The notes beneath the pieces were generated by a model. The model did not search any database. It saw only the letters and a program-made list of their open reading frames with translations, and was not told the origin of the DNA. From NCBI GenBank assembly GCA_963702095.1, contig OY969706.1, positions 2,464,001 to 2,528,000 on the forward strand: a stretch of 64,000 nt of DNA, given 5' to 3'. Positions 16,613 to 62,404 of the stretch are shown piece by piece (position 1 is the stretch's first letter; each line of letters opens with the position of its first letter). Source of the stretch: Candidatus Bathyarchaeota archaeon (GTDB lineage Archaea > Thermoproteota > Bathyarchaeia > Bathyarchaeales > Bathycorpusculaceae). The position numbers and the translations under genes were made by a program.

Positions 16613-16720
16613 TTAGAGCTTCTTTTTTAGTTTGCCCCATTCCTCTTGGGTTTTTCCTTCGGCTTCTTTGGCTTTGCCCTCAACCTGTTTTGATTTTCCC
16701 TTAAGTTCGTCTTTACTCAA
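16613..16720 (-). CDS. CsbD-like general stress microprotein (35 aa; not in ORF track)
   Basis: TTG start with GGAGGTG upstream; MSKDELKGKSKQVEGKAKEAEGKTQEEWGKLKKKL has the CsbD pattern (DxxKGKxKQxxGKxKE...EGKxQExxGK). Confidence 0.8.
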   Translation of the reverse strand: MSKDELKGKSKQVEGKAKEAEGKTQEEWGKLKKKL

Positions 16721-16775
16721 AAAAATACACCTCCAGAACTTTGATCCATCAAACAGTGAGAAGTAATTCAAAGGT

Positions 16776-16808
16776 TATTATTGATGCGTGACTGCAAACC
16801 GTAGCTAC
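16776..16808 (-). promoter_or_regulatory. Putative palindromic operator plus TATA-like box of the csbD-like gene
   Basis: Minus strand reads GTAGCT-N9-AGTCAC-N6-ATAATA. Confidence 0.55.
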
Positions 16809-16849
16809 AACTTATTTTTCAAGAAAAACGATGCCCCGTAAGGGGATAC

Positions 16850-18170
16850 TCAGAGTCGGCGATGTTTTCGTCTAACCATCAAGACAACCGTGAATATTGC
16901 CACCACGACGATGACTACAACGACGATGAGCAGAATGCTTTCTGTTGGCAACGCTATGGTTGATGCCGCGGAGGGGGTGCCGAACGCATAAACAACATGA
17001 TCCCACGAAGCCACATACACATTGCCATCTGCTATGGCAGGGGAAGAATTCGCATGGGCCAAAGCGGTATAACTCCATTTTTCAGCGCCGGAGGCTGCGT
17101 CGAGACAGTAAATGTTGTGGCGCCAATCGCCAATGTATAGTCAGGCCATCGGCTACTGCAGGAGAGCAATAGCTTGCGCCGCCCTGCATCGTGTAATTCC
17201 AGACTTTTTCACCTGTGCCAGCGTTTAGGCAATAGATGTTTGAGGGAATATCGTTTTGGTTTGCGTCTACGACGGTGCATCCGAAATAGACGTATCCGTT
17301 GGCTACGGCAGGTGAAGAATCAACCCAACCAGACGCTGAATAATTCCAGATTTGATTGCCGTTGGCTGCATCAAGACAGTACAGGTACATGTCCTCAGAT
17401 CCAATGTAGACTCGCCCGTCAACCACCGCTGGGGAAGACTGCACAAGGTTACCTGTACTGTAAACCCAGATTTCACTGCCGGAAGCGGCGTCTAAACAGT
17501 AAACTTTGCCGTCCACAGAACCCGCATATACTTTGCCATCCGCAACAGCGGGCGAGGATTCGACTTGGCTTCCAGTGGTGTAATTCCAGATTTTGTCGCC
17601 TGTCCTTGCGTTTAAGCAGTAGACGTTTCCATCCCAGGAACCTACATAGAGGTTGCCGTCAACAATTGCGGGGGACGACTCAACCGTGCCGTCCGTCGGA
17701 TAAGTCCAAACTTTAGCGCCACTGGATGCGTTTAGGCAGTAAACGTTCTGGTCATAGCATCCAAAGTACACGTAGCCCTCCCAAACCGCCATGGAGGAGC
17801 TTATCGCTGAAGCCTCTCCCCCATGAGCATCTACACTGTTAGTGTGAACCGTGTAATTCCATATTTGGGAACCATCCTCAGCATTTAAGCAGTAAGCAAC
17901 GCCACCGTCAGAGCCAATATAGAGGCGCCCATCCGCAACTGCTGGGGAAGCGGAAACTACACTGTTGGTTGTAAAGTTCCATAGCAAAGCTGCAGAAGTA
18001 GCCGTGGAGGTATCGGTTGTGTAGCCTGTGCGGTTTAAATCGTTGTGGAACATTGGCCAGTTGCTGCCGGAGCTTGCGGTGACAGTTGCGTTTAGTGCGA
18101 ACGTAGAGAATAGGATTATTGCGGCGAAAAGGGTTATTGATGCGGTTTTGGCTAAGCTATTTTTCTTCAT
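16850..18170 (-). CDS. Secreted PQQ/BamB-like beta-propeller repeat protein with C-terminal TM anchor (1-nt frameshift at ~17143)
   Basis: Signal peptide, WPMF..D..RTG, repeated SSPAVADGxxYxGSxDGxVYCLxAxxGxxIW units; removing one base joins ORF 17082-18170 to 16850-17062. Confidence 0.88.
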
Positions 18171-18235
18171 AGAGGTCAGCTTATGCCAATAAAGTAAAAC
18201 AGGGTAACATTAAGGCTTTATGATTATTGTGGTGT

Positions 18236-20002
18236 CTAAGAAAGAAACCGCCTCGGATCAGTATCAATATCTACTATAACAGGTTTTTTAGCTTGCAATG
18301 CCCCATCCACGGCTGATTCGAGATCCGCTGGCTCAGTAACTTTAATGCCCACTCCCCCTGAATGCTCCGCAAAATCGGCGAAACTGTAATCATGCAGCTC
18401 GGTTTGCCAGCGCTCGTAGCCCTCAACTTTCTGCTCCTGCAAAATCATGCCCAAATGCTTGTTGTTTACAACGAAGATTTTGATGGGCAACTCGTATTTG
18501 AGTGCAGTTAAGAAGTCGCCTAAAACCATTGTTAAGCCACCGTCGCCTGTTATGCAGATAATCTGGCGCTCTGGATAAGCCAAAGCCGCCGCCAACGCGC
18601 CGGGTAAACCGAACCCCATCGTTGCCAAGTTGCCGCTCATAACCAGTTTCTGCGTCCGCTTCATGTTGAAGTTTCGTCCAAACCACCAGCAGTTCTCGCC
18701 CACATCGAGCGAAATCACTGCGTCTGACGCGACCTTCCGGTTTAGCACTTTCATGATGTATGGGGCTCGGATGGGCTTTGCAGATGCGTCTGCTTCTCGT
18801 TCCAGCTGGTCCAACCATGCTTTTTTGAGGCGCTCTACTTCAGCAACGTAGTCAGCGTTGTTTTTCTGTGCCACTTTCTCGGTTAATTTAGGGATCAGAA
18901 CGGCGCTGTTACCCAACAACGACACTTCAGCAGGGAAACGCCGTGCAATCATCAATGGATTTATGTCGATTTGAACCATGCGTTTGTGGGGAATCTGCGA
19001 TAAATCCGAAAAAGACACGCCTATGGCTATGAGCAAATCGGTTCTCTCCATCAGTATGCCTGCAGCGGTGGAGCCGATGCCGCCGTGGCAGCCCACGTAG
19101 AGCGGTTCGTCCGCGTCGACGAAGCCTTTAGCTGGGAAAGTCGAGATAATCGGTGCCCCAAGCTTTGAAGCCAGCGCCGTCACTTTGGTGCCTTGACCTC
19201 GGCAGCCAAACCCAATCAAAACCACCGGTCGAACCGAGCCATCAACGGCTTTTGCGGCTTTCTCAACCACCCAATCTTCCTGCCCATACGCCAAATTAGG
19301 CATCCTGCCCTCAAAAGGCGAAACCGGCGCGTCATAGGGCAACTTTGCAACATCGTTTGGGATACCGATGTGGGCAACGCCTTGGTTGAGCAGGGCATGT
19401 TTAATCGCCAAAGTAGCCAATGTGGTGGTTTGGTCTTCTGTCATTAGGGTTTTGTTGTAGACGCTTATGGGCGCAAAGAAGGCTTGGTGGTCGATTTCCT
19501 GCAGGGAACCTCTGCCGATTAGTTTGCGTGGAACCATACCGGTCAAAGCCAACACGGGAGAATGGTCCAGTTGTGCGTCGTACAAGCCGGTGGCGAGGTT
19601 TGTTGTGCCTGGACCCGAAATGGAGAGGCAGGCGGCTATGTGCCCTGTGAGTTTGCCGTATGCTGAAGCCATAAAAGCGGCGGTTTCTTCATGGCGAACT
19701 TGGATGTATTGGATTTTGCCCGATTTGCGTATGGCTTCTATGATGCTTAGGGTGGAGGTGCCGGGGATGCTGAAAACGTATTTGACGCCCCAAGCTGCAA
19801 GTTGGTTGATGAGTACATCTGAGACGGTGCTTGCCGACTTTGGCTCTTGCTTCTTTCCCTCTTCCGTGGCTAAGAGGACAAATGCGGATTTAGGCGCACC
19901 ACAAATTGGGCAAACCCACTCTTTAGGCAAATCCACAAAACGGACTTTCTCTTTTGCGTCGTCATAAACCCAGTTGCAGACGGTACACCGGTACTTCGCC
20001 AT
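18236..20002 (-). CDS. Rubredoxin-fused thiamine-diphosphate enzyme (pyruvate oxidase/PoxB-like)
   Basis: N-terminal [11 protein letters not shown]...[13 protein letters not shown] rubredoxin; [21 protein letters not shown]...NN ThDP motif. Confidence 0.88.
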
Positions 20003-20091
20003 AAATAAGCCTCAAAACAAGAAAACTAAGAAGCTTCGCACTTATCAGCTTATTGGAAACAGAAAACTATCGCTGTATTTCTTTCAGATAG

Positions 20092-20418
20092 TTAGAGTTT
20101 AAGTGTTTCCTTGATTTTTTCGTTTATTTCTTTCTTAAGCTGGGGACCAATCTGCCCTAACTCCCCCATCACCAGCTTTTTTGATAAGGTTGCGATTTTT
20201 TCAATTTTTAGATATGAATCGGTTTTTAACCCTGTTAGTCCGAATTCTATATGGCTCTCTTGTATCAGCACATCATAAGCGGTTGCTTTACTTATTCTCG
20301 AAGAGACGAAGACTACCGTAACATCTTTTTCGGCCTCAAACAAAACAAGAGCGGGTCTAACTTTAGCCGCTGTTAAGTCAGTAAATGGAAAAACGATGAG
20401 AACTATTTTTCCTTTCAA
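20092..20418 (-). CDS. PemK/MazF-family toxin
   Basis: GKIVLIVFPFTD....KVRPALV, SSR, GLKTDS....KIATL. Confidence 0.88.
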   Translation of the reverse strand: MKGKIVLIVFPFTDLTAAKVRPALVLFEAEKDVTVVFVSSRISKATAYDVLIQESHIEFGLTGLKTDSYLKIEKIATLSKKLVMGELGQIGPQLKKEINEKIKETLKL

Positions 20419-20618
20419 TTACGACTAACCTTTTTCTTAATATCATTAACTGAGTACAAATCGGGCTCTTCTTCCAAGAATTCTTTTAGAGCCTGTTCCT
20501 CAAGAACCATAATCGCGTCTGTTTCTCTTTCCTCGAGAAGAGAATCAAGTTTCTTGTTGACTTCTGAGAGCAAAGATTTGATTTCTTTAAGCTCAACCTC
20601 GATTGTCATTATTTCCAC
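20415..20618 (-). CDS. Probable antitoxin of the MazF-type module
   Basis: Small acidic protein overlapping the toxin start by 4 nt; C-terminal FLEEEPDLYS. Confidence 0.65.
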   Translation of the reverse strand: MEIMTIEVELKEIKSLLSEVNKKLDSLLEERETDAIMVLEEQALKEFLEEEPDLYSVNDIKKKVSRN

Positions 20619-20719
20619 AAATGCCTTATTGGCTTAATCTAATATAATAATTGTTGCTCAAACGAAAGAAATCGAATAATTCATAAACCGCTTCAACCCA
20701 ATTATTCCCTAACAGAAGG

Positions 20720-21661
20720 ATGCCTGTCATGGAGAATTGGGATGTTATAATAGTGGGCGCTGGCTCAGCGGGATTAGCCGCAGCCATTTACGCAGTCCGC
20801 AGTGGACTCAAAACCCTAGTTTTGGACGAGAAATTCGCAGGCGGCACAATCACTGACGCCCCAACAATCGTAAACTACCCAGGTTTCGTCTCCATCAGTG
20901 GAGGCGATTTAGCACTGAAAATGGCTGATCACACTCGAGCCTTGGGCGCAACCATACATGATATCGAAGCCGTAACCGCCCTCAACCTCCAAGGCGAAAA
21001 CAAAACCGTAACCACCACCGCCACCACCTACGGCGCCAAAGCCGTCATTATCTCCACAGGTTCACATTACAAAGAAATCGGCGCCAAAGGCGAAAAAGAG
21101 TTCCGCGGCAAAGGCGTGAGCTACTGCGGCGTCTGCGATGGCCCCTTTTTCAAGGGCAAACGGGTCCTCGTTGTCGGCGGCGGCAACTCTGCTTGCATCA
21201 CCACCCTCTACCTATCAGGCTTAGCCGCACAGGTCACCGTCATACATAGACGCCAAATGTTCCGTGCTGAAGAATCCTTAGTCAACGACATAAACACAAA
21301 GGGTAACGTCAAAATCGTGTGGAACACTGAAATCCAAGAGATTAAAGGCGATAAACAGGTGCGCTCCGTAGCCTTAATCGACAACTCCACGGGGCAAACC
21401 AGCGAAATCCCCGTTGACGCCATTTTTGTGCAGGTGGGCGAAGCACCGAACAGTCAGATCGCACAAGCCAGCGGTGTAGAGGTGGACGAGCATGGCTATG
21501 TAAAAATTGACATCCGCCAACACACCAACCTCGAAGGCGTTTATGCTGCAGGCGACATCACTAACCACCCGGTGAAGCAGGTGGGAACAGCGGTTGGACA
21601 GGGAATAACGGCGGCGCTTGAAGCATACGCCTACATCAGACGACCATACTACAAAAAATAA
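20720..21661 (+). CDS. trxB: Thioredoxin-disulfide reductase
   Basis: GAGSAG, NYPG, GKGVSYCGVCDG (CxxC), VGGGNSA, YAAGDI. Confidence 0.94.
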   Translation: MPVMENWDVIIVGAGSAGLAAAIYAVRSGLKTLVLDEKFAGGTITDAPTIVNYPGFVSISGGDLALKMADHTRALGATIHDIEAVTALNLQGENKTVTTTATTYGAKAVIISTGSHYKEIGAKGEKEFRGKGVSYCGVCDGPFFKGKRVLVVGGGNSACITTLYLSGLAAQVTVIHRRQMFRAEESLVNDINTKGNVKIVWNTEIQEIKGDKQVRSVALIDNSTGQTSEIPVDAIFVQVGEAPNSQIAQASGVEVDEHGYVKIDIRQHTNLEGVYAAGDITNHPVKQVGTAVGQGITAALEAYAYIRRPYYKK

Positions 21662-22127
21662 TGGCGCTCCCCCGTCTGTTTCCACAACCATCCTGCAATC
21701 CATTTCCGATTTAAAACGCAAAAAACAGTCGCCAGCCAAGCCCCCAGAAGAAGATGAGCAAGGGCACCTCTGCCTTCATCTAACACTAGAAAAACAAAAA
21801 GCGAAATTTTGATCCACTGGTTTATAGGGAGGATAGTTGCTGAGCAACAGAACCTGCGCATACAACCAATAATGGCGCCATCAGGCGTAAAACTGGACAA
21901 TTGTTAACTGTTCTATCATGCAATCTTTTGTAAAGTACAGTGCTGTTTGGGTTGACTGAAAAACAGGCAAATAATACGTTTGTTAACATCTCGGTATATA
22001 TGGAGTTTTCATTATTTTGCGGGGGAAGGATTATATGATTCTTAAAACCTCTCTGTGCCTTCAAAGCGCTTTTAGCATGCACGCTAAAGCGTCGAGTTAA
22101 TGGCGGAAAAGCAAAAGAGGTTTACTA

Positions 22128-23349
22128 ATGAGTGAGAAATGTCTCGCTGCAGTTGAGATAAATCAAGACCTGTGCAGTAGATGTTATGTCTGCAAATCCA
22201 TCTGTCCCTATGAAGCCATAAAAGCTGACTCGACTGGGAAAGTTGAGATTAACATAGAGGATTGCCAAGTCTGTGGCATCTGCTACAGTGCCTGTCCAGC
22301 TTCAGCCATAAAAATGCAGTATTACACATACGATAACCTAACAGAATACCTAAAAAGCGCCCAGGCAAAAAGCGCCTAAAACCGAAACACTGGTTCTGAT
22401 GTGCAGAGGAAACTCGCCTAACAGCGGCGAAGTCAAAGACATCCTAAAAGAGCAAGGACTCAAAGTATCCGATTACCTCTCGTTGCGTTTGCCCTGTGCC
22501 GGCAGAGTCCCAACCGACTTTGTTTTCGAAGCCCTAAACTTAGGCATAAAAAACATCGTTTCCATCCAATGTGAAGACCCCTTCTGCCGCTACAAAGAAG
22601 GCACAAAAATCAACACACGCAGACTCGCATTGGCAAAAAATGTGCTCCAACAACTCGGCTACGACGAAAACGCCGTTCGAGTCATCAAGTACAGCCGCAA
22701 AGCAGTCTACGACGTGCTCGAATGTGTGGGCTGCGACAAATGCATATTCATCTGTCCCTACGGCGCATTAGAATTCGAATCCTTCGCAACACCAAAAGTA
22801 ATCGAAGAGAAATGTGTGGGTTGCGGTGCATGCCAGTTGGTTTGTCCACATCACGCCATACAAGTCAAAGGCTTCGAATTCGAAAATGTGCTTAACCGTT
22901 ACAACAGCGCTGCAGAAGCCATCAAAGCCAAAGGCAACAGCCCAGCAGTTCTCGCATTTATCTGTCAATGGTCAGAGTTCTCTGCTTTGGATAACCCTAA
23001 CAAAGCCTTTGAAGGCAAAAACGTGTTGGCGCTTGAAGTGCCCTGCTTCAAATCCCTCGACCCCGTCCACGTTGTCAACGCACTCAACTGCGGCTTTGAC
23101 GGCGTCATGGCAGTGGTTTGCTCCTCCAAGGACTGCAAGCTACAGGAGGGCAGAGACACAGCTGAACGCAACTTAGGCGTCATGCTTGATGTCCTCAAAA
23201 AAGAAGGCTTACTTGATAGGTTTACGCTCTACGAGGAGTCGCCTCGCTGCGACGGGGACTTCCAAGCCAAAGTAGACGAGTTCTACCAGAAAATAACCAA
23301 GTTATCTAAAACAGCTAAACTGGAGGCACTACAGCAATGTACAGAATAA
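22128..23349 (+). CDS. Tandem (2x[4Fe-4S] ferredoxin + MvhD/FlpD)x2 iron-sulfur protein (1-nt frameshift at 22377)
   Basis: Two CxxCxxCxxxCP pairs, then MvhD-like C...PCAGRV...QCEDPFCRY, two more ferredoxin motifs, then AFICQW...PCFKSLDP...GFDGV..VVCSSKDCK. Deleting T22377 fuses the two ORFs in frame. Confidence 0.8.
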
Positions 23350-24188
23350 TCAGCAAAACCGAGCTTGTGCCAAAAATCAAGCTCTTCGAAGTTGAAGCCC
23401 CAGATATCGCCGCAAAAGCCCACCCAGGCCAATTCTTAATAGTCATCCACGGCAAAAAGGGTGAGCGCATCCCCTTAACCATCTGTGGCTATGACACCGA
23501 AAAAGGCACGGTTTCGTTTGCGTTCCATGAAGTGGGCAAAAGCACCAAAGACCTCGGCAAACTAGGCGTCGGCGACGAAATCGACAATGTTACCGGACCA
23601 TTGGGTAATCCCTCTGAAATCAAGAACTATGGCAAGGTGCTGTGTGTCGGCGGCAGCGTTATGATTGCGCCGCTTCTGCTGCAGTCTAAAGCCATGAAGG
23701 AAGCCGGCAACAACGTCACAACAGTAATTGGCGCACGCACAGAACCCTTCATCATGATGGAGGAAGAGGCAAACGAGTACAGCGACAAAGTCTACCTCTC
23801 AACTGACGACGGCTCCAAAGGCTACCAAGGCTTAGACTTCCTCACTGAATTGCTCAAAGAAGAAAAGTTTGACCGATGCGTCGTTATGGGTCCAGTTATC
23901 CTGATGAAAGATGTTTCGGCAATCACCAAGCCCTATGGCATCCCAACCATAGTCACAACTACGCCGATTATGATTGACGGCATGGGCATGTGTGGGGTTT
24001 GCCGCGTGACGGTCGGGGGCAAAATGCTCTTCGGTTGCGTGGATGGACCTGAATTTGACGGTCACCAAGTTGATTTTGACGAGTTGATTCTGCGTCAACG
24101 CACGATGCTTCCTGAGGAACGGTTAAGCAGCGTGTTGGCAGAACTGCATGAACATGGAGGTTGCAAGTGTGGCAGAAACAAAGCCTAA
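23337..24188 (+). CDS. nfnA: NfnA/SudB subunit of ferredoxin:NADP+ oxidoreductase
   Basis: PGQF, GERIPLTI, GPLGNP, TDDGS, MIDGMGMCGVCRV, CVDGPEFDGH. Confidence 0.92.
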   Translation: MYRIISKTELVPKIKLFEVEAPDIAAKAHPGQFLIVIHGKKGERIPLTICGYDTEKGTVSFAFHEVGKSTKDLGKLGVGDEIDNVTGPLGNPSEIKNYGKVLCVGGSVMIAPLLLQSKAMKEAGNNVTTVIGARTEPFIMMEEEANEYSDKVYLSTDDGSKGYQGLDFLTELLKEEKFDRCVVMGPVILMKDVSAITKPYGIPTIVTTTPIMIDGMGMCGVCRVTVGGKMLFGCVDGPEFDGHQVDFDELILRQRTMLPEERLSSVLAELHEHGGCKCGRNKA

Positions 24189-28188: not shown

Positions 28189-28228
28189 GTGGTCTTTTTG
28201 GGTATTGTTTTTGTTCGGCGGTTTGTTG

Positions 28229-28287: not shown

Positions 28288-28288
28288 T

Positions 28289-30877: not shown

Positions 30878-30938
30878 AGATTTTCACAACACCAAACCAA
30901 ATGCATCGCCCTAAATAAGGGATTCAACGTGGGCTACT

Positions 30939-30972
30939 GTTACTGCATGGTATCAGCCACATATCTTTATCA
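30939..30972 (+). promoter_or_regulatory. Putative palindromic operator plus TATA-like box of the gsiB/KGG-like gene
   Basis: GTTACT-N10-AGCCAC-N6-TTATCA. Confidence 0.55.
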
Positions 30973-31037: not shown

Positions 31038-31172
31038 TTGTCGAAAAGGCGAAATGAAGACATGGAGAAGGGAAAGATGACAGTGCAGGAAGCAGGCAGA
31101 AAAGGCGGTGCAAAAGGCGGTCCCCGTGTCCGTGAACTCATCGAAGAAGGCAAAGAACACGAAGAAGAATAG
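31038..31172 (+). CDS. GsiB/KGG (Em/LEA-like) hydrophilic stress microprotein (44 aa; not in ORF track)
   Basis: GGAGGTGA upstream of TTG; MSKRRNEDMEKGKMTVQEAGRKGGAKGGPRVRELIEEGKEHEEE carries the MTVxEAGRKGG signature. Confidence 0.82.
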   Translation: MSKRRNEDMEKGKMTVQEAGRKGGAKGGPRVRELIEEGKEHEEE

Positions 31173-31248
31173 TGCGTAAGACAATAGTGCGCACACAGCA
31201 GTTTAAGCGTCTTTGCCCCTTTTTCTTGCTAACAGAGGTATATTGAAG

Positions 31249-31425
31249 GTGAGTCAAATAGTCAAGCGTAGAAGCACGCCCCAAACCCGTGCTGGACAAT
31301 ACATGTGCCCCCAATGCGGAAAAGTCTTTGACACCAAAACAGAAGTCGACAGTCACATACGCAAAAGCCACAAACCCAAAATAAAATCGGTGCACGACAG
31401 CCTAAGCGGCATCTACACCGAGTAG
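31249..31425 (+). CDS. Small C2H2 zinc-finger protein
   Basis: YMCPQCGKVFDTKTEVDSHIRKSH fits CxxC-x12-H-x4-H. Confidence 0.75.
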   Translation: MSQIVKRRSTPQTRAGQYMCPQCGKVFDTKTEVDSHIRKSHKPKIKSVHDSLSGIYTE

Positions 31426-31538: not shown

Positions 31539-34293
31539 ATGGCGAGCACACTTGACAAATGGTTTAGTCAACCAGCTAAACCTCCAAAGGTCTTAGCAGA
31601 GGCTAAAGCGCAAGCGCCACCCACAGTTCAACCCCAAGATGCGGCAGTCGCCCCAGCGACTAAACCTAAAATAAGAATACGCCAACCATACCCGCCCATA
31701 GCTCCACTAAACCTGCCCCCCTCATACTTTGTGTCCGCCACATACGATGGCAAACAGAGGAAGGCGGTCATTAAACTCTACGAACCTGAATTGGGACAGA
31801 TTTATTTCTGGTATGACAACACCGAGCACCTGCCATACTGCCTTACAAGCATCGCTAAAGAGGAACTGGAGCTTTTTGATCGGGTAATGAGTCACCCGGG
31901 CTTTGACCACTTTGAATCAGAGAAAAGATTGGACCCCCTAAACGATAAAGAAATTGAAATAACCAAAATCGTCTGCAAAGACCCCCTTGCCATCGGCGGC
32001 AGACCAGGCGGCACCATAAGAGACATCATTCCTGAAGATTTCCCCAAAGTCTTCGGCACAAACATCCAAGATGCAGGGGCAAAAATCTGGGAATCCAAAA
32101 TCAAGTATTACCAATCCTACATCTATGACCGCGGGCTTCTTCCAGGAATGATTTACGAGGTTAAAGACGGCAACCTGATGCCAGTTGTGGTGGATTCTGC
32201 GGCTGAGAACCTCACAAAAATCCGTGGCCTATTCAAAGACTGCACCGAAGAGGAGCGGGAATACGCGGAGATGTGGGCTCAACTGCTCGAGTACCCTGCG
32301 CCCCAGTTTCGCCGAGCAGCCATCGACATCGAAGTGTACTCGCCACTGGCTAACCGTGTGCCAGACGCACGCGAAGGCGCCTGCCCAGTCATCGCCTGCT
32401 CAATCTATGGCAGCGACGGCGACAAAAAAGTCTTGGTCCTCAAACGCGAAGGCATGATAGACGGCGACTCCCAGTTAACTAAGGATATTGAAGTGGAATA
32501 CTGCGACACAGAAGAGGAGTTGCTGCGCAAAATCTTCGACGTCCTAAACGATTACCCCTTCATCTTAACTTTTAACGGCGACGACTTTGACCTGCGCTAC
32601 CTCGCCCACCGCGCCTACAACCTTGGCTTAACCAAAAAAGACGTGCCCATAGAAATCGGCAAACGCGTCTGCCTTCTGCGCTACGGAATACATATCGACC
32701 TTTACAAGTTCTTTTTCAACCGCAGTGTGCAGATTTACGCTTACGGCGGAAAATACAAAGACGTTAGCCTTGACGACGTTGGCTGCGCGTTGATTGGCAC
32801 TCCGAAAATCCATTTGGAGAAGGATTTTGGCGACCTTAACTACAGTGAACTCGCGGCTTACTGCCTCCGAGACAGCGAAATCACCTATAAACTCACCAGC
32901 CACGACAACGACTCAGCGATGAAGTTGATTTTGGTGCTTGCCAGAATCGCCAGCATGCCCATGGAGGACGTGAGCCGACAGGGCGTAAGCCGATGGATAC
33001 GCAATTTCATGCACCGCGAACACCGCAAACGAGGCATGCTCATCCCAAACGCCGAGGACATCTTGACCAAGAAGGGCAAAACCAGCACAACCGCTGTCAT
33101 CAAGGGCAAAAAGTACAAGGGCGCCATAGTCGTCGAACCCATACCAGGCGTCCACTTCAACGTCGCCGTCATGGACTTTCCAAGCCTGTACCCAAGCATC
33201 ATCAAGGTCTGGAACCTCGGATACCAATCCATCTGCTGCAACCACCCGGGCTGCAAGAGCAAAAAACCCATCCCCGACACCCAGCACTGGGTTTGCACAG
33301 AGAAACGTGCGCTTGAAAGCCTCCTCATCGGTTCGCTACGGGATTTGCGTGTGCGGTGGTACAAGAGTCGAGCCAAAGACAAGACACTGCCTCCTGAGTT
33401 GCGCAGCTGGTACAGCATCACTCAGGGCGCACTCAAAGTTATCTTAAACGCCAGTTACGGCGTGTTTGGAGCCGACAGCTTTGACCTCTACTGCCCGCCC
33501 GTCGCCGAAGCCACAGCCGCCATACGCCGCTACAGCATCACCCAAATCCTCAAGCACGCCGAAGAAGTCGGCATCACAGTTCTCTACGGCGATACCGACA
33601 GCGTCTTCCTCAAAAACCCTACCAGAGAACAAATTGACGACGTTATCCACTACACCGAACACGAACTGGGCATGGGCATCGACATGGAGAAAACCTACCG
33701 CTATGCCGTTTTTAGCAGCCGAAAAAAGAACTACCTAGGCGTCCTCGAAGACGGCACCGTAGACGTTAAAGGGTTAACTGGAAAAAAGAAGCATATCCCA
33801 CTCTTCATCAAAGACGCTTTTAACCAGATGAAGGGGCGTCTCGCGCAGGTTAAGAACCCTGAGGACTTCCAGAAAGCCCGAAAAGACATCGCCAACATTG
33901 TCCGCGAACGCTACAACACGCTGAAGCGCCGGGAATGGACAGATAACAGCGCACTCGCCTTTCACATGGTATTGGGCGATGAGTTGGCAAGTTACACAAA
34001 GACTACTCCTCAACATGTAAAAGCAGCTAGAATCTTGCAGAGCAACGGAAAAGAAATCCGCGCGGGCGACCTTATCAGTTTCGTGAAAGTCATGAAGTCA
34101 GGGTCGTCACGGGGGGGTCCTGAAGATATTTCTGGCGTTAAACCTGTCGAGTTGGCTTCGCGCAACGAAATAGACGTTGAAAAATACGTTGCCTATCTGC
34201 AGGCAACCTTTGACCAAGTGCTGGACGCGTTAGGCTTGAGTTTCGAGGAAATCATCGGTTTAACCAGGCTCTGAAAGCTTCTTGGGTGCATAA
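31539..34293 (+). CDS. polB1: Family B DNA polymerase, PolB1 type (extra base at ~34272 truncates the last residues)
   Basis: DIEV exonuclease I, FNGDDFD, DFPSLYPS, KVILNASYGVFG, YGDTDS, KKNY; N-terminal YDGKQRKA..KLYEP and KDPLAIGG are PolB1-like. Removing one T gives TRLESFLGA*. Confidence 0.95.
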
Positions 34294-54154: not shown

Positions 54155-54237
54155 CTAAGACTCACACAGAAGCAGACACTGACTGAACGTAAAAATGTAT
54201 CGAAGTTGCAGTAGGAGGTGAGGTAAGAAGAGAAAGC

Positions 54238-55100: not shown

Positions 55101-55514
55101 ATGCAATTCGACTTCGGCAACTTAACCCAATCAATCCTAAACCCCCTCCTAAACACAGTGCCCATAGAAATCACCTTCATCGACCACACCGACACCGTCC
55201 GCTACTTCAACAACCCACCCAAAATGATTTTCCTCCGCACCAAAGGCGTCATAGGTATGAAAGTGCAGAATTGCCACCCAGCCAAAAGCCTAGACACAGT
55301 AAACAGGATAACTGAGTCGTTTAGGTCAGGCAACAAAGACGTCGCTGAATTCTGGATAAACTTGCACGGGCGCATGATTTACATTCGCTTTTTCGCAGTG
55401 CGGGATGCTGAGGGCAAGTATTTGGGTACGGTAGAAGTTGTGCAAGACGTTACTGAAATTCAGGGGTTGAAGGGTGAGAGGCGGCTTCTGGATTGGAAAG
55501 GTTTAGGCGTTTAG
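55101..55514 (+). CDS. Stand-alone PAS-domain protein (DUF438/PAS_10 type)
   Basis: P.EITFID..D.VRYFN, IF.RT..VIG..VQNCHP.KS, AEFWI, YIRFFAVRD..G.YLG.VEV.QD. Confidence 0.85.
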   Translation: MQFDFGNLTQSILNPLLNTVPIEITFIDHTDTVRYFNNPPKMIFLRTKGVIGMKVQNCHPAKSLDTVNRITESFRSGNKDVAEFWINLHGRMIYIRFFAVRDAEGKYLGTVEVVQDVTEIQGLKGERRLLDWKGLGV

Positions 55515-56927
55515 ATGAAGATTGAAACTGTCAAGTCTGAGGGGTTAGCCCACAACAGCTACTACCTCCAAAGCAAAGGCGAAGCCGCCGTAGTTGACCC
55601 ACGCCGCGACTGCAAAGTCTACACGGAACTCGCCGCAAGGGGCTGCTCAGAAATCAAGTACATCCTTGAAACCCACAGAAACGAAGACTACGTCATAGGC
55701 TCGCTGGAACTGCAGAATATGACTGAAGCCGAGATTGGGCACAGCAAAGAATTACCCTTCAAGTATGGCGAACATAACTTAACAGACGAAGACACCTTAA
55801 ACGTGGGCAACGCAAGAATCAAGGCACTCTACACCCCTGGGCACACAAACGAGTCACTCTGCTACATCCTATTCGAGCGAGAAGAAGCGCAGGCGGTGTT
55901 TACAGGCGACACCTTGTTTGCGGGATCAGTTGGACGCACCGACCTCTACGGAAGAGAAGCGCAGCCAACTCAAGCCAGAAAACTCTACAACAGCCTACAC
56001 GATAAGCTGCTGCAGTTAGGTGATGGCGTAATGGTTTATCCTGCTCATGGCGCAGGCAGCGTCTGCGGCAGCCAAATCAGCGGCCAAACACCCACCACCA
56101 TCGGCTACGAAAAACACGTCAACCCCTACCTAAAACTGGCAATGGAAGCTTTCGTCTCAAAAACGAGTAATGAAGGCTTGGTTGTGCCCCGCTACTTCAA
56201 GCGGATGGAAGATTACAACCTCAACGGGCCGCCGCTACTCAAGGACCTTGCTGACCCAAAACCATTGTTGCTTAAGACATTTGAAGAGGAAATGCAACAG
56301 CAAAACATTGTCGTCATCGACACCCGAAAACCCCATGCCTTTGCAGGGTCACATATCCCCAACGCACTTAGCCTCTGGCTGGAAGGAGCCAGCGTTTACC
56401 CAGGCTGGATCCTAGACACCAAACAATACATCGTCTTCGTACTTGAACGCCCAGATGACGTCGGCACCGTCACAGCTGTTTTCCGCAGATTGGGCTTTGA
56501 TAACATGTGCGGTTATCTCTGTGGCGGCATGGGCACTTGGCAGGAAGCAGGCAAACCCATCCGCAGCTTCGGCACCATAGGCGCTACCGAGCTTAGGGAT
56601 AAGCTGGGCAAGGACGAAGTTTTCCTGTTGGATGTGCGGGAACCCCATGAGTGGAGTGAAGACGGCTGCATCGAAGCGGCAACACGGATACCCTTCATGG
56701 ACCTTCCCGAGCAAACCGCTTCGTTGCCCAAAGATAAGCATGTTGCAGTCACCTGTTCAGTGGGTAACAGAAGCAGCATCGCACTGAGCATCCTTGAAAG
56801 AGCAGGCTTCAAAGACATATCCAACGTGCTGGGCGGCGTGACCGCTTGGAAAGCCCTCGGCTACCCCACAAAAAAAGAAACTAACTCCGAGCCCCAGTTT
56901 CCCTCATCGTTTTTGCCAAACGTGTAG
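55515..56927 (+). CDS. MBL-fold hydrolase with two rhodanese domains (persulfide dioxygenase/CstB-like)
   Basis: VVDPRRD, ETHRNED, TPGHT, FTGDTLF.GSVGRTDL, YPAHGAGSVCG, rhodanese DTR/DVREP and C-terminal CSVGNRS. Confidence 0.88.
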   Translation: MKIETVKSEGLAHNSYYLQSKGEAAVVDPRRDCKVYTELAARGCSEIKYILETHRNEDYVIGSLELQNMTEAEIGHSKELPFKYGEHNLTDEDTLNVGNARIKALYTPGHTNESLCYILFEREEAQAVFTGDTLFAGSVGRTDLYGREAQPTQARKLYNSLHDKLLQLGDGVMVYPAHGAGSVCGSQISGQTPTTIGYEKHVNPYLKLAMEAFVSKTSNEGLVVPRYFKRMEDYNLNGPPLLKDLADPKPLLLKTFEEEMQQQNIVVIDTRKPHAFAGSHIPNALSLWLEGASVYPGWILDTKQYIVFVLERPDDVGTVTAVFRRLGFDNMCGYLCGGMGTWQEAGKPIRSFGTIGATELRDKLGKDEVFLLDVREPHEWSEDGCIEAATRIPFMDLPEQTASLPKDKHVAVTCSVGNRSSIALSILERAGFKDISNVLGGVTAWKALGYPTKKETNSEPQFPSSFLPNV

Positions 56928-57608
56928 CCTTGCCATCCTTGGGCTCCAACAGTTCCTTGACAAGGGGATATTGGCGCTGGTAGATGTGGCAGTTTTTGCT
57001 GTGGAAAACCAGTTTACCAGTTTTAAGCGAGAGGTTACCGCGTTCGTTGATTTCTGAAACGAAAGCTTCGTTGAAAAGCTGCAGCCCGCGATGTTGGCGG
57101 GTAAGCCTCCGTAGGCGTCCCAGCTGCGGAAGTAGCAGGTTAGGTGCATTTGGCCGTCGAGGATTTCGGTGTCGATTAAGCTGAGGCAGGGCGGCTCGCT
57201 TTTGTTGCCTTTAGAATCAAACTTTGCTATGTCATCTGGGCGACGGATAACCATGGTGACTTGACGGTCCCGTTGCTCCTCCACATACCGTTTGACAGCT
57301 TCCTCCACCTGATTTATTGGGTCGTTTAGGCGGCTGCCGTAAGTGTAGGTTTCATCCTCTTTTTTTTCGCCACACCACAGGTACTCCAAAGCGTAGCCCT
57401 GCACGTACTTGAAGTCGCAGGGGGCTTTGTCGCTGACAAGCGGCCTGTTCTCGGGATGCGCAATCTCAATTGTCAAGTTAAGCTTTTTTGTTTCAGTCTC
57501 CTCAGAACCAAACCCAACTTTGTAGACGTCGCCTTCACGCCAAATCGCATTTAAGGCTTTGAACCATGCGTCAGGGCAGTCGAACGATGAGATTTTCACG
57601 TGCTTCAT
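56881..57608 (-). CDS. thyA: Thymidylate synthase, archaeal ThyA type (1-nt frameshift at ~57085)
   Basis: YTYGSRL, PPCL, FRSWDAYGGLPANIAG; the shifted frame continues LQLFNE...FHSKNCHIY...to TAG at 56883-56881. Confidence 0.88.
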
Positions 57609-57757
57609 ACTGTTCTCCCAATCATTGTCTACTCTATCCCTTAAAGCTTAATTATTTTTGGGCTTGGAAGGGTTTGGGCTAACTATTGTGGATACATAGT
57701 TTACAGTCATAAGTCATATCAGACAACGACCCCATAGAAAGGGCAGGTAGTGACAAC

Positions 57758-57985
57758 TTGGCGAAAACCGTAGAAGCCTCAGGCATCATAATTACTACAC
57801 GGATTAAAATAGAGAGTGAACTCAAAAAGAATAAGGCGTTCAATGAAGAATCCGCCTCCACATTCGAAGAATTCGGCACGGTCCTAGACATCATGCAGAG
57901 AAGCGGCTTAATCGCCAAAACAGCCGACGGCAAATATTTCATGACTGAGAAGGGTCAAGACCAGCAGATACGCGGCTTCTCATAA
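57758..57985 (+). CDS. Small hypothetical protein (possible wHTH fragment)
   Basis: 75 aa; GLIAKTADGKYFMTEKG wing-like motif. Confidence 0.5.
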   Translation: MAKTVEASGIIITTRIKIESELKKNKAFNEESASTFEEFGTVLDIMQRSGLIAKTADGKYFMTEKGQDQQIRGFS

Positions 57986-58065
57986 AGACTTCGCCGTATA
58001 GAATCAAGAGATTTCAAGAAACAAATAATCTGTTTAAGAACATAAAGAGAAAAGAAAGGGTTTGG

Positions 58066-59730
58066 TTAGTAGGGCATTCCGCCCATACCGCCCATGCCAC
58101 CCATACCTCCCATTCCACCCATTCCTCCTGGGGGCATCGGAGGCATCTTTCCGCCGCCTTTGACGCTGATTAAATCGTCGATTTTCAGTATCATGTTGGT
58201 GGCTTCGGTGGCTGATTTGATGGCTTGCTGCTTCACGCGCAGAGGCTCCACAATCATTTTGGGGCACATGTCAACGATTTTGCCTGTGGTAACGTCGATG
58301 CCGAAGGTTTTGCTATTTGGTTTCTCGTGTTGTGCGCGGAGTGCAACCATGATGTCTATGGGGTCTAAGCCTGCGTTCTCAGCGAGTGTCAATGGGATTT
58401 CTTCGACTGCTTCTGCGAAGGCTTCCACTGCGAGTTGTTCCCGTCCGCCCACTTGGACTGCGAAGGCTTTCAGGCCTTTTGCAAGTTCAGCTTCGGGTGC
58501 GCCGCCGCCTGCAACGATTTTGCCGTCTTCGATGACGTTACGGACAACGCATAAGCCGTCGTGTAAGCTGCGTTCTGCTTCATCGATAACATGGTTGGAT
58601 GCGCCTCGGATGACGATGGTTACGGCTTTGGGGTTCTTGCAATCGCGTATGTAGAGGAGTTTGTCGTCGCCGATTTTGACTTCTTCAACACGTTTCGCTT
58701 TACCCAACACTTCTGGAGCTAATTCTTTGACTGATGCAACAATCATGGCGCCTGTGGCTTTGCTGAGTTTCTCCATGTCGCTGCTGCTCACGCTTTTAAC
58801 TGCGATGACCCCGGCTTTTCCTAAGAAGTGAAGTGCCATGTCGTCGATGCCTTTCTCGCAGAACACAACGTTTGCACCTGACTTCGTGATTGAAGTAACC
58901 ATGTCTTTTATCATGCGTTCTTCTTCGTCTAGGAACAACTTCATCTGGTCAGGGCTTTCAATGTTGATTTTTGCGTCAAACTCGGTTTTCTCGATTTCGA
59001 GTTTTGCATTGAGAAGAGCAATTTTTGCGCCGTCAACCAGTTTGGGCATGCCGCTGCTGGCGATTTCTTTGTCAAGAACCATGCCTTTGACGAGTTCGGT
59101 TTCGTCGAGGCTTTTACCGTGTTTCTTCACAATTTTCACCAAGTCGATATCGGCGACGTATTTGTCGTCAACTTTCTCAGAGACTTGCCGGACTGATTCG
59201 ACGATGATTTTTGCGAAGTGGTCTTCTGCGACGTTGATGCTTTTGCTGGAAATCGAGGTTATAGCGACTTCTTTTAGGGTTTTATCATCGTTGAAAGCAA
59301 CTGGCAAAGCGATAGCCTGCAGGATTTTCTGTGCCTCTTCGCTTGCTTTCTTGTAGCCTTCAATGATAACGGTTGGATGAATGTTTTTGTCGAGTAATCC
59401 TTCGGCTTTTGCGAGTAGTTCGCCTGCTAGGATAACGGCGGTTGTAGTTCCGTCGCCGACTTCGTTGTCCTGTGCTTTGGCGACTTCAACAAGCATCTTT
59501 GCCGCTGGATGTTGAACGTCGAGTTCTTTCATGATGGTTGCGCCGTCGTTGGTTATGGCAACGTCGCCCATGCCGCTGACCAGCATCTTATCCATGCCGC
59601 AGGGACCGAGCGTGCTTTTTACGGCTTCAGCAACGATTTTAGCAGCCATAATGTTGTTTCGTTGTGCTTCGCGGCCAGTACTTCTACCTGTGCCTTCCTT
59701 TAATACTATGAACGGGGATGTTTCCTCCAC
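58066..59730 (-). CDS. ths: Thermosome (group II chaperonin) subunit
   Basis: STLGP.GMDKML, TNDGATI, GDGTTT, AGGGAPE, ENAG, C-terminal GGM repeats. Confidence 0.97.
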
Positions 59731-59864
59731 CTTGAGACATAATTTCACCAGATTCTGTAGATTTTAATTTTAATTATAAACTGGAATTCAACAATAAAAA
59801 ATTGAAATATAAGTTTTTCCTAAGGTTAACGCTGATAATCAACCAAAACAAGTGACTTCAACCC

Positions 59865-60023
59865 TTAGGTTTCAGTTTCACCCTTCTCACTTCGAGTCTT
59901 ATTTACCGTTGCTGCCGCGATACGTTCAGCATCCTCTTCGGATGCACCGCGTTTGAGCTCAGATTCTTTTATGTGCTCGTATTGCCGTTTACGCTTTGGA
60001 TTTTCAACGCCTCTTGGAGGCAA
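59865..60023 (-). CDS. 52-aa charged microprotein of the 'RQYEHIKES...IAAxTVNK' family (not in ORF track)
   Basis: GGTGA upstream of TTG; MPPRGVENPKRKRQYEHIKESELKRGASEEDAERIAAATVNKTRSEKGETET resembles a bacterial small-protein family often auto-annotated 'plasmid stabilization protein'. Confidence 0.75.
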   Translation of the reverse strand: MPPRGVENPKRKRQYEHIKESELKRGASEEDAERIAAATVNKTRSEKGETET

Positions 60024-60095
60024 ACAATCACCGTCCCAAAAATGGAGTTACTAAAAAACGAGTAATGTACAAAAAGTGTAGAGAGGAAACAGCGG

Positions 60096-60572
60096 TTACA
60101 TCTTTGGCATATTTGCCATCTTTTCATTCATGAACTGCTTGGCTATTTCCCGTTCGTCATCATCTGAGAGGACATGTCTAGCTTTCTTGAAGAGGTCGTC
60201 TTCTTCCTCTTTAATGTGCATATCAACGGTTTCGCTTAGGACTTTGATTTTAGCGTATTTTACATCATCATCGCTTGAGTTATCGACATCATTGATTACC
60301 TTTTTAGCAACATCATGCTCCTCATAAGCTTCAAGTGTCAGCGTCCTTGTTTCAGGGTTGTTTTCAAGCCGCGGATAGAAAAGCTTCTCTTCACCCGCCA
60401 TGTGTAACTGCAATGCCATCTTAATCTGAGAGAAAACATCGTCCTGATAGCGTTCTCCATCGACAATTTGTTTGAAAAGTCTCTTAACATCCTTATGTTC
60501 TATCTTCAAAATATCATAGATCGGGGCGTCATCTTGAATTTTCTCCTGTTCTTTCCTAACTTCTTCTTGCAT
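60096..60572 (-). CDS. Hemerythrin/HHE cation-binding domain protein
   Basis: LKIEH..VK.LF, HMAGEE.LFYP, AYEEH, HIKEEE..LF; GGAGGTGA upstream. Confidence 0.88.
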   Translation of the reverse strand: MQEEVRKEQEKIQDDAPIYDILKIEHKDVKRLFKQIVDGERYQDDVFSQIKMALQLHMAGEEKLFYPRLENNPETRTLTLEAYEEHDVAKKVINDVDNSSDDDVKYAKIKVLSETVDMHIKEEEDDLFKKARHVLSDDDEREIAKQFMNEKMANMPKM

Positions 60573-60625
60573 ATATTCACCTCCCAATTACTTGGAGGAA
60601 AAATTGTTAGCACCCACCAATCTTG

Positions 60626-61180
60626 TTACCTCGCCATTTCACGGCATGACTCCGCACAGCGTCTACAAACGCTTGCACATTCCTTCATGAAGTCCTCGTC
60701 AAAGCGGTCAAAGTTGTCGGCGCATTCATCGCATATGTCAGCACATATGCCGCAGGTCTGGGGGTAATAGGTAGAGTTTCTCAGCATGAAATCAGCGTTG
60801 GTATTGCAGATTTTTGCGCAGTCCATAATGAGGTTGATGTGCTCGGCTTCTGCATGTTTGCCGCCTATGCTGAGGCAACGCAGAATGGTTTCGCTGCAGG
60901 TTTGATAACATTCCATGGAATCTTTGAGGCATTCGCGGACTTCTTCACTAGTCATGTTTTCAGAGTTTTGAATGCGTTCAAGTTCGTCCATGGTTCCAGA
61001 CATTCTGCCCGTCAATGGCAATTGATTTTTTTCTGCCCAACCTTCAGCGATGTCTTCTTGGGTTTGGGCGCCGTCAGAGTTTTCCTCGGAATAGCGGTTA
61101 ATGTCCCGTGAAGTGAATTCCTGTATAAAATCAGGTTTTTCCTTATTGGTAGTTAAGTCACGTTCAAGGGGTTTTGACAT
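60626..61180 (-). CDS. Cys-rich four-helix-bundle copper-storage protein (Csp3/DUF326-like) with acidic N-terminal extension
   Basis: ECLKDSMECYQTCSE...CL, DCAKIC, CGICADICDECA, ECASVCRRCAESCREMA; GGAGGTGA upstream. Confidence 0.85.
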   Translation of the reverse strand: MSKPLERDLTTNKEKPDFIQEFTSRDINRYSEENSDGAQTQEDIAEGWAEKNQLPLTGRMSGTMDELERIQNSENMTSEEVRECLKDSMECYQTCSETILRCLSIGGKHAEAEHINLIMDCAKICNTNADFMLRNSTYYPQTCGICADICDECADNFDRFDEDFMKECASVCRRCAESCREMAR

Positions 61181-61294
61181 GTCTTCACCTCCCCTATCAA
61201 CAGCCATTGATTGGCAAAAATTAGCAAGCGTTTTTTTGAAGCCCTAAGCTATGACTTTCGATAGGTTTTCATGATTAATTTCATGTAGGCGACC

Positions 61295-61327
61295 ATTTAA
61301 GATTATGTGACTACAATTCCAAGCCAA
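61295..61327 (-). promoter_or_regulatory. Putative palindromic operator plus TATA box of the csp-hemerythrin-microprotein operon
   Basis: Minus strand reads TTGGCT-N9-AGTCAC-N6-TTAAAT. Confidence 0.55.
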
Positions 61328-61396
61328 CATCAAACTACTTGGAATCCGAAGCAAAAAAGGGGGTGCTTAAGAGAAATCTTGAGCGTCATATTTACC

Positions 61397-62290
61397 CTAT
61401 TTTCTGGGAAGCAACTCGTTTAACTCAAAGCTCGCACCGCACAGCACCGTGTCTGCTCCGCCATAGTAAACGATGACTTGATCATCGATCTGCACGTTGC
61501 CACAGCTGAAAACCACGTTTGGTACGTCGCCGATGCATTCATAGCCTTCACAAGGTGTAAGGATGGGTTTGTCTGAGCGATAGAGCACTTTCTCAGGGTT
61601 AGCCTTATCCAGCAATGCCACGCCAAGAGAATAGTTTTTCTTTTCATCAACGCCGTGGTAAATGAATAGGTAGCCTTCGTTGAGTTCGATGGGTGTTCCG
61701 GCTGCACCGATTTTGACGCTGTCCCACATTTTGTCTCGGGGTTCCATGACGGATTTGAAGCCATGCCATTTCTTGAGATCCGCAGAGTAGGAAACGCAGA
61801 TGCTGGGTTCGATTCGGTGAAACATCATGTATTGGTCGTCAACTTTGCCGGGCAGGATAAAGGCGTCCTTGTTACGTACGTTGGGAAATGGCAGGATGCG
61901 TTCTTTCCAGTTCCAATTGCGATTTACAAAGTCTTGGAGGTTTATGGAGGTTAACGATATTTGGTAGATTACGGGGAAATCGTGGTTTCGATAAGCCGTG
62001 TACGCCATGATGAGTTGGTCGCCTATTTGGGTTAAGCGTGGGTCTTCACAGCCACTGTGTTCTGCATGTTGAACTGGGGTAAAAATTGGGGTGTCGAAAC
62101 GTTCTTTAATAGTGTAGCCGTCGCTTGAAGTTGCCAAGCCAAGCCGGGAAACGTTGTCGTCTCCCATGGCTCGGTATACAATGTGGACTAAGCCGCCGCT
62201 GTACACCGCCGCCGCGTTGAAAACAGACCTTGACTCCCAGTAATTCCTCTTTATTGGTTCTAATATGGGGTTATGTGCAAAGCGTTTCAT
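61397..62290 (-). CDS. GH130-family glycosidase/phosphorylase
   Basis: NPILEP, VFNAAA, YRA, SRLGLATS.DG, GCEDPR, NKD, KIGAAGTP, YHGV, GDVPNVVFSCG, YYGGAD. Confidence 0.88.
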   Translation of the reverse strand: MKRFAHNPILEPIKRNYWESRSVFNAAAVYSGGLVHIVYRAMGDDNVSRLGLATSSDGYTIKERFDTPIFTPVQHAEHSGCEDPRLTQIGDQLIMAYTAYRNHDFPVIYQISLTSINLQDFVNRNWNWKERILPFPNVRNKDAFILPGKVDDQYMMFHRIEPSICVSYSADLKKWHGFKSVMEPRDKMWDSVKIGAAGTPIELNEGYLFIYHGVDEKKNYSLGVALLDKANPEKVLYRSDKPILTPCEGYECIGDVPNVVFSCGNVQIDDQVIVYYGGADTVLCGASFELNELLPRK

Positions 62291-62370
62291 ATGCCCCTCT
62301 CCCTTCCACTAAAGGTTCTACACAGGCAAAATATAAACCTGCATGGAACTTTATGTCGAAATCGCCCTTT

Positions 62371-62404
62371 GTGACTGTTCTTATACAATCACATGTGCTT
62401 AAAC
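62371..62404 (+). promoter_or_regulatory. Putative palindromic operator plus TATA box between the divergent GH130 and GT4 genes
   Basis: GTGACT-N10-AATCAC-N6-TTAAAC. Confidence 0.55.

Follow-up and report, generated by a model that had tools for sequence, protein, structure and literature searches.

Four promoter regions in a 64,000-nucleotide stretch of a Bathyarchaeia genome (hereafter the window) carry a similar imperfect inverted repeat close upstream of a TATA-like box, and the genes behind them encode, among others, a CsbD-like protein, a small KGG-type protein, a cysteine-rich DUF326-type protein and a GT4-type glycosyltransferase. The question raised by this locus is whether the repeats are operators of a single stress regulon and, if so, which factor reads them. 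A first-pass annotation of the window, made by eye, had proposed a dimeric activator or an alternative transcription factor B (TFB) that places bacterial-type stress genes in one regulon, and all four strings are indeed present at the coordinates and on the strands it gave. The window corresponds to bases 2464001-2528000 of a genome assembled as a single contig (2,937,366 bp, 46.8% GC), in which genes were predicted with a custom-written caller that returned 3261 calls covering 83% of the genome. Taken as a whole, the explanation that we lean towards is that the four sites are operators of one activator-driven stress regulon.

A 24-bp palindrome upstream of the TATA box

When re-aligned, each of the four sites resolves into an inverted repeat of 8+8 bp with a TATA-like hexamer starting after a gap of 5 nt (Table 1), and iterative refinement across the genome yields the consensus TGTKRYTG-N8-CARYMACA, then (T/A)-A-N3, then TTAWAW. 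This dyad spans 24 bp, with a distal half of consensus TGTTGCTG and a proximal half of consensus CAGTCACA at a centre-to-centre distance of 16 bp; the 8-nt spacer is uninformative and the flanks are likewise free. The spacers of 9 or 10 nt described in the first-pass annotation are an effect of alignment at site 3, which is canonical with a weak distal half, while the variation is genuine at site 1, whose spacer is one base shorter, a 7-nt form shared by 12 of 113 matches genome-wide. Beyond sites 1-4, the window contains no match of at least 18 bits to the combined palindrome and TATA model.

A regular expression for the proximal half and TATA box returned 38 matches genome-wide, 29 of them non-coding, and TGT recurs at -17/-16 from the proximal half in 19 of these 29; since the search made no demand on the distal half, this recurrence indicates that the distal half is real. 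The palindrome and TATA model gave 113 matches of at least 18 bits, nine of which lie mostly within called genes, and 98 matches of at least 21 bits compared with 0.1 in ten Markov shuffles of non-coding DNA, a ratio that is generous, as shuffle ratios are here in general, because the position weight matrices (PWMs) were trained on the genome being tested. A palindrome-only PWM, without the TATA columns, found 105 non-coding matches of at least 16 bits (72 unique palindromes) and 11 coding matches, against 1.6 +/- 1.3 in Markov-shuffled non-coding DNA. The contrast between coding and non-coding DNA, the spacing control and the cross-genome data are independent of PWM training; in the spacing control, the exact pattern in IUPAC code occurs at 15 sites, and at none with a spacer of N6, N7, N9 or N10.

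The position of the element is equally constrained. Around the palindrome-only matches, strong TATA-like hexamers occur solely at +27 to +29 from the palindrome start and at the mirror position, with a box at that distance on at least one side of 49 of the 72 unique palindromes and on both sides of three, and no palindrome was seen over or downstream of a TATA box among the genome-wide sites. An expectation-maximisation motif search of 1678 upstream regions identified the ordinary promoter of this genome as a TFB recognition element (BRE) with A at -5/-4, followed by TTAWAW. This standard BRE is absent from all four window sites, and the last three bases of the proximal half occupy positions -8 to -6 from the TATA box, where the general BRE carries information; scores of the BRE region do not differ between 74 motif promoters and 688 general promoters (p 0.88), and the corresponding comparison of TATA boxes was set aside as biased by the way in which the general set had been chosen. 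The bare CAC-N6-TATA pattern, which the first-pass annotation had listed as a caveat after seeing it ahead of genes including polB, is not a general promoter feature: CAC stands at the proximal-half offset of 38 of 2888 TATA-like hexamers, compared with approximately 29 at other offsets, and the polB promoter has no model match. The initial view of the four sites as one shared cis-element at a fixed distance from the TATA box is upheld, and there is hardly any doubt that the element is real and stands at approximately 70-100 promoters.

Approximately a dozen palindromes located between divergent genes score in either orientation, as between the cytochrome b5-like and CDGSH genes at 774.9 kb and at an SDR gene at 1624.4 kb; one operator may serve two divergent promoters in such cases. 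A fully symmetric palindrome, TGTGATTG-N8-CAATCACA at G000:C1:785623-785646 (G000 denoting this genome), lies approximately 1 kb upstream of a KatG-type catalase-peroxidase gene (786688-788754), with no credible open reading frame (ORF) directly behind it.

The element is conserved within a narrow taxonomic range. Of the other 24 species of the genus, 22 have the exact pattern, at 1-25 sites per genome, compared with one hit in one genome for the reversed control. In the family sample it was found in 27 of 121 genomes, 15 of which have at least five sites, and its distribution is patchy inside genera (e.g., three congeneric species have 37, 2 and 0 sites). Among genomes from other families of the order it was found in one of 16, and outside the family, in the phylum sample, in one of 284, at a single site. 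Individual sites persist at orthologous promoters: all eight GT4 orthologs (66-91% identical) have the palindrome at -69 to -78 with unrelated spacers, and the element was found at none of the 12 GT4 paralog loci scanned, in a scan that covered 21 of 27 loci after exclusion of six partial or contig-end loci. The motif is also retained at eight of nine DUF326 orthologous promoters, including the weak distal half of site 3, and at 21 of 25 promoters of a small protein described below as target #2. Two types of Sso10a-like genes, also described below, have comparable footprints, with the palindrome at a fixed upstream position in 38 of 39 type A orthologs in public genomes and a palindrome-like site with a TATA box in 7/7 type B genes. 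Exact sites in three other genomes (G013, G020 and G061) precede genes for KGG, CsbD-like (G020 included), fasciclin, C2H2, HSP20, PRC, Tag and P-type ATPase proteins, and unnamed small proteins encoded by targets in G000 recur behind exact sites in the same three genomes.

Genes behind the element

The target of each promoter was defined as the best ORF starting 24-260 nt past the TATA box, giving a credible target for 79 of the 98 promoters that score at least 21 bits; the 19 promoters with no credible ORF were dropped from the counts of gene content and length. The targets are short, with a median of 103 aa compared with 206 aa for 2280 promoter-bearing genes (Mann-Whitney p 7e-7). Pfam scans, which covered 63 targets, identified small stress-type families (KGG, a sub-threshold CsbD-like protein, two DUF2795, HSP20, PRC barrel and BrkB/YihY), redox- or metal-linked proteins (SDR, cupin, cytochrome b5-like, CDGSH iron-sulfur, F420-type oxidoreductase and DUF326), and enzymes and transporters (3-methyladenine glycosylase, GT4, an MGH1/GH63-type hydrolase, pyruvate phosphate dikinase, two P-type ATPases, an ABC ATPase and MFS). 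Further targets include two fasciclins, several C2H2 fingers, a TFS paralog, three stand-alone Lrp/AsnC ligand-binding domains and two HTH_45 proteins. Ribosomal, RNA-polymerase and replication proteins account for 0/63 scanned targets, the closest being the TFS paralog and the Tag glycosylase.

Unlinked paralogs frequently carry the motif as well, in both members of four pairs and in two of three members of two families. KGG-type genes have motif promoters of their own at window site 2 and at genome position 833569. The CsbD and GsiB/KGG-type membership read from the window agrees with the family searches, in which a longer KGG paralog matches Pfam KGG (E 5e-9), the 44-aa protein of the window has no Pfam match by itself and the CsbD-like protein falls below the family cut-off (Table 1). 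A paper on desert methanogens urges caution over LEA and KGG labels for KGG-like proteins (PMC12904285, excerpt), and the annotations used for this genome call for similar care.

One target, referred to as target #2 (G000:C1:927053-927355), is a single-copy gene encoding 100 aa with the near-invariant promoter ACAGTCACA-caacc-TTAAAAAA. It is present in 20/20 genus genomes with at least five motif sites and absent from 5/5 with two or fewer; searches returned no Pfam family, a non-significant best Protein Data Bank (PDB) match to uL23 (E 0.17) and atlas matches below 0.8. The genes behind the motif very probably form a single regulon, as their shared promoter sequence suggests, and their gene content makes a role in stress or dormancy fairly likely.

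Several loci in the genome concentrate such genes. A tight minus-strand cluster of KGG-repeat ORFs with a DUF2795 ORF lies behind two motif promoters (G000:C1:150153-152216) and looks like an operon-like stress-protein array. A 'stress island' at G000:C1:241357-248555 has six motif promoters in 7 kb, with genes for a PRC-barrel protein, a fasciclin, two unnamed small proteins and a membrane protein. The TFS (Zn_ribbon_TFIIS) paralog at G000:C1:1467469-1467819 lies behind a motif promoter of 26.9 bits at a long distance of 184 nt, and a stress-regulated paralog of a transcript-cleavage factor would be of interest.

In the window itself (Table 1), the C2H2 zinc-finger gene that follows the KGG gene possibly shares its transcript, and a family B DNA polymerase gene (31539-34274) lies just downstream of this pair. 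The gene after the glycosyltransferase is possibly co-transcribed with it, given the 2-nt gap between them. The GH130 gene is divergent from the glycosyltransferase gene, and towards GH130 the site 4 palindrome has no TATA box at the canonical distance. Scans for Rfam families and tRNAs returned no matches in the window. A search of sequencing runs for window 59800-63700 returned two DNA runs with small shares and no RNA run.

Table 1. Promoter elements and associated genes, in window coordinates.
Feature	Position	Strand	Basis
Site 1 palindrome TGTAGCTA-CGGTTTG-CAGTCACG, 7-nt spacer variant	16787..16809	-	23.4 bits (full model)
Site 1 TATA-like box ATAATA	16776..16781	-	Sequence
CsbD-like protein, 35 aa	16613..16720	-	Pfam CsbD E 8e-4, below family cut-off
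Site 2 palindrome TGTTACTG-CATGGTAT-CAGCCACA, N8 spacer	30938..30961	+	28.1 bits; exact IUPAC match
Site 2 TATA-like box TTATCA	30967..30972	+	Sequence
KGG-type small protein, 44 aa, ...EAGRKGGAKGG...	31038..31172	+	Translation; phmmer to KGG paralogs E 3e-5
Small C2H2 zinc-finger protein, directly after KGG gene	31213..31425	+	Pfam zf-C2H2 E 1.1e-5
Site 3 palindrome TGTTGGCT-TGGAATTG-TAGTCACA, N8 spacer, weak distal half	61306..61329	-	26.1 bits; distal half 3.5
Site 3 TATA box TTAAAT	61295..61300	-	Sequence
Cys-rich DUF326-type protein ('csp' in the first-pass annotation), first behind site 3	60626..61207	-	Pfam DUF326 E 3.6e-4, 20.8 bits (cut-off 20.4)
Hemerythrin-domain protein, second in site 3 cluster	60096..60572	-	Pfam Hemerythrin E 3.4e-14
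52-aa ORF, third in site 3 cluster	59865..60023	-	ORF call; no Pfam match
GH130 gene between sites 3 and 4, divergent from GT4	61397..62290	-	Pfam Glyco_hydro_130 E 4.5e-60
Site 4 palindrome TGTGACTG-TTCTTATA-CAATCACA, N8 spacer, upstream of GT4	62370..62393	+	Sequence; 33.1 bits
Site 4 TATA-like box TTAAAC, 5 nt past palindrome	62399..62404	+	Sequence
Glycosyltransferase (Glycos_transf_1 / GT4-type), site 4 target	62439..63647	+	Pfam E 2.9e-21
Gene after GT4, runs off window, 342 aa in genome	63650..64000	+	Gene call; weak GH127-like Pfam match, E 2.5e-7

Candidate factors and alternative explanations

The palindrome implies a dimeric factor, as the first-pass annotation had supposed. In the mechanism that we propose, a dimeric transcription factor would bind the 24-bp repeat directly upstream of the BRE/TATA region, partly overlapping it, at a fixed distance, and would activate by contacting or recruiting TFB or the TATA-binding protein (TBP); activation would then turn on a set of proteins, most of them small and of stress or dormancy type. 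Activation is favoured because dozens of promoters keep strictly to one phase and the sites lie upstream without exception, and an activator is accordingly what we would cautiously expect this factor to be.

The best candidate for the factor is a TrmB-CBS protein of 561 aa (genome 1505929-1507614) that combines a TrmB winged helix-turn-helix (wHTH), a Regulator_TrmB domain and a C-terminal pair of CBS domains, and is homologous to TrmBL2 by sequence. It stood out when the 21 TrmB-domain matches of G000 were compared with those of three motif-bearing and two motif-less genomes, and its presence tracks the motif. Orthologs (59-96% identical) were found in 19 of the 20 genus genomes with at least five sites, the exception being G021, which is 65% complete, compared with one of the five genomes with two or fewer sites (G011, where the gene is in pieces with an in-frame stop). 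Across the 121 genomes of the family sample the protein occurs in 10 of 15 genomes with at least five sites versus 2 of 106 others, these two being 44% identical, and it tracks the motif within two genera (present in G116 and not in G050; present in G069 and not in G126 or G152). This phylogenetic profile makes the TrmB-CBS protein a tentative candidate for the factor that binds the palindrome. The inducing signal is conjectural, and the CBS domains could sense adenylate or ionic status. The proposal in its fullest form, a CBS-sensing TrmB-family activator that would drive a general stress/dormancy regulon of approximately 100 promoters in Bathy-6 Bathyarchaeia, as an accessory module gained and lost together with its operator sites even between congeneric species, and built from many small protein families shared with the bacterial general stress response, is a speculative one.

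The genus members G006, G018 and G120, which lack the motif, have smaller genomes of 1.5-2.0 Mb (88-96% complete). A TrmB-like protein query found no match in these three, and no HTH_45 match was found in G120 by the family search or in G006 and G018 with the type A query, whereas other family members have many matches of both kinds; this suggests a wholesale loss of regulators in a reduced sublineage. A second TrmB-like gene, in the middle of the stress island (243208-244059), was rejected as a general regulator because its close orthologs were found only in G069, G116, G049 and G013 among 33 genomes searched. The genome also encodes stand-alone RAM-domain proteins and two full-length Lrp/AsnC proteins.

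Several points weigh against an activator-driven stress regulon read by the TrmB-CBS protein. The PWMs and the gene caller are home-made and were trained on the same genome, and no family is known for approximately one third of the credible targets, so that the word 'stress' describes the annotated part. The 3-bp overlap of the proximal half with the distal BRE is an arrangement also used by repressors, and the argument that a weak BRE would need an activator is unsupported because the BRE-region scores are equal. No TrmB-CBS ortholog was found in motif-bearing G063 (19 sites), G060, G119, G058 or G049, and the TrmB-CBS gene is not itself preceded by a palindrome. Related genomes are non-independent observations in this profile, and any gene of the accessory module would share it; since the profile of target #2 is similar, that of the TrmB-CBS protein speaks for membership in the module rather than for binding.

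The rival that survives best keeps the same element and regulon and assigns them to a repressor, which would sit on the distal edge of the BRE, block TFB and TBP, and be released under stress. The overlap with BRE positions -8 to -6 suits such a factor, as do the normal BRE-region scores, with which motif promoters could fire unaided, and TrmB itself represses at a site overlapping the BRE/TATA (PMC4158304, excerpt). However, a repressor needs overlap and not a fixed phase, and here the TATA box is confined to +27 to +29 at dozens of promoters. No palindrome lies over or downstream of the TATA box either, and in the TrmB family a site upstream of the BRE/TATA leads to activation and a downstream site to repression (PMC4158304, excerpt). 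Repression is for these reasons a possible but rather doubtful reading.

The binder could alternatively be one of the Sso10a-like proteins, which would then be autoregulated. Type A (genome 1186664-1186948) matches Pfam HTH_45 (E 4e-21) and PDB 1r7j (E 5e-7) and is also homologous to 4hw0; type B is a relative of 74-78 aa (HTH_45 E 2.5e-8) that replaces type A in seven other species of the genus. The two are complementary within the genus and were found solely in motif-bearing genomes, their own genes are nearly always preceded by the palindrome, and motif-less G006, G018 and G120 have no HTH_45 match. The Sso10a dimer is built around an antiparallel coiled coil, with a winged-helix head at either end (PMC4941522, excerpt), a shape that would suit half-sites 16 bp apart, although the excerpt gives no head-to-head distance. 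Neither type was found, even with a combined A and B profile, in G016, G020 or G022 (94-95% complete; 25, 15 and 11 sites), nor were they found in G049, G058 or G119, and the recognition helices of A and B differ in most residues; moreover, Sso10a is described as a chromatin protein with no known specific site (PMC4941522, excerpt). As a universal regulator, the Sso10a-like proteins were rejected on account of the motif-rich genomes in which they were not found. Because of these absences from G016, G020 and G022 and the differing recognition helices, type A is treated as a constant target and a minor regulator candidate, and an Sso10a-like binder is improbable; type A may be a nucleoid protein induced by stress. 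Of the 39 type A loci, two come from bins that bear the titles Methanocella sp. and Limnocylindrales bacterium, and probably represent mis-binned contigs or transfer.

In a further alternative, the element would be an extended promoter of a sigma-like class, recognised by a specialised TFB (or TBP) paralog and not by a separate regulator; an alternative TFB was the other option of the first-pass annotation. The element abuts the BRE and G000 has 10 TFIIB-repeat matches (approximately five TFBs), but motif-rich G005, G007, G008, G015, G017 and G019 have four (approximately two TFBs), as do motif-less families. An extra TFB paralog was rejected because these counts do not track the motif; the dyad symmetry and bidirectional sites also fit a dimer and not the single helix-turn-helix of a TFB, leaving this option very unlikely. 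Chance similarity, a dispersed repeat or a mobile element, which might be suspected from four sites found by eye, two with weak distal halves, can be dismissed, as conservation is limited to the half-sites and TATA box with free spacers and flanks, sites persist at orthologous promoters across species and genera, and shuffles and other spacings give approximately zero.

Significance and comparison with known systems

To our knowledge, gene regulation in Bathyarchaeia is essentially unknown, and the group has hardly been cultured. A literature search returned no work combining 'Bathyarchaeia' with 'regulon' and no description of such a motif, and publications on Bathycorpusculum include none on regulation as judged from titles and the openings of abstracts. 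An operator regulon of a transcription factor beside the BRE/TATA is an already known kind of system; the novelty lies in the motif, in the size, the gene content and the modular, lineage-restricted distribution of the regulon, and in the TrmB-CBS protein as a candidate, which together point to a previously undescribed archaeal stress regulon. The analysis offers a sharply defined operator whose taxonomic range is clear, together with approximately 80 credible targets, of which many are small proteins lacking annotation. Expression of the two candidate regulators does not require culture of the organism, and the motif may be used as a marker for reading metatranscriptomes. If the regulon is a general stress/dormancy programme, it would show how abundant archaea of soil, peat and gut outlast unfavourable periods; it would also mean that bacteria-like stress proteins are wired into archaeal BRE/TATA promoters as a functional counterpart of the bacterial general stress response.

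The regulon shares with Sulfolobus Sso10a the homology of its type A and B members, and differs in that type A and B genes are almost always preceded by the palindrome. In haloarchaea, the upstream activating sequence of GvpE is an activator site just upstream of the BRE/TATA. Ptr2 of M. jannaschii and TFB-RF1 of P. furiosus are likewise activators with sites just upstream of the BRE/TATA (PMC4158304, excerpt; for TFB-RF1 also PMC5937170, excerpt). The present element resembles all three in lying directly upstream of the BRE, with recruitment of TBP or TFB as the proposed mode of action, however these systems act at few promoters, whereas here approximately 70-100 promoters are involved, the gap to the TATA box is strictly 5 nt and nothing indicates a weak BRE.

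A closer parallel is provided by TrmB regulons, in which motifs are palindromic and include the long-spacer TACT-N7-8-GAGTA of Halobacterium VNG1451C, and in which the TrmBL1/Tgr operator of Pyrococcus and Thermococcus, TGM, is TATCAC-N5-GTGATA (PMC4158304, excerpt). As in these regulons, a palindromic operator stands at dozens of promoters in a defined position relative to the BRE/TATA, the inner half-sites ACTG-N8-CAGT have a long spacer like that of the haloarchaeal motif, and the candidate factor, with binding predicted, has a TrmB wHTH and TrmBL2-like domains. The half-site orientation, sequence and spacer nevertheless all differ from those of TGM, and the sequence and spacing do not match the haloarchaeal TACT motif. 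The targets are stress-type small proteins and not genes of sugar metabolism, the candidate carries a CBS pair, and all sites lie upstream of the TATA box at one distance, with none downstream.

The gene content recalls a bacterial system. CsbD-like, KGG/GsiB-type, HSP20, PRC-barrel, BrkB/YihY-type and SDR proteins occur in SigB or other bacterial general stress regulons. The overlap in content with the SigB regulon, and the similar size of approximately 100 promoters, are set against a difference in machinery, in that no sigma factor is involved and the operator lies beside an archaeal BRE and TATA box.

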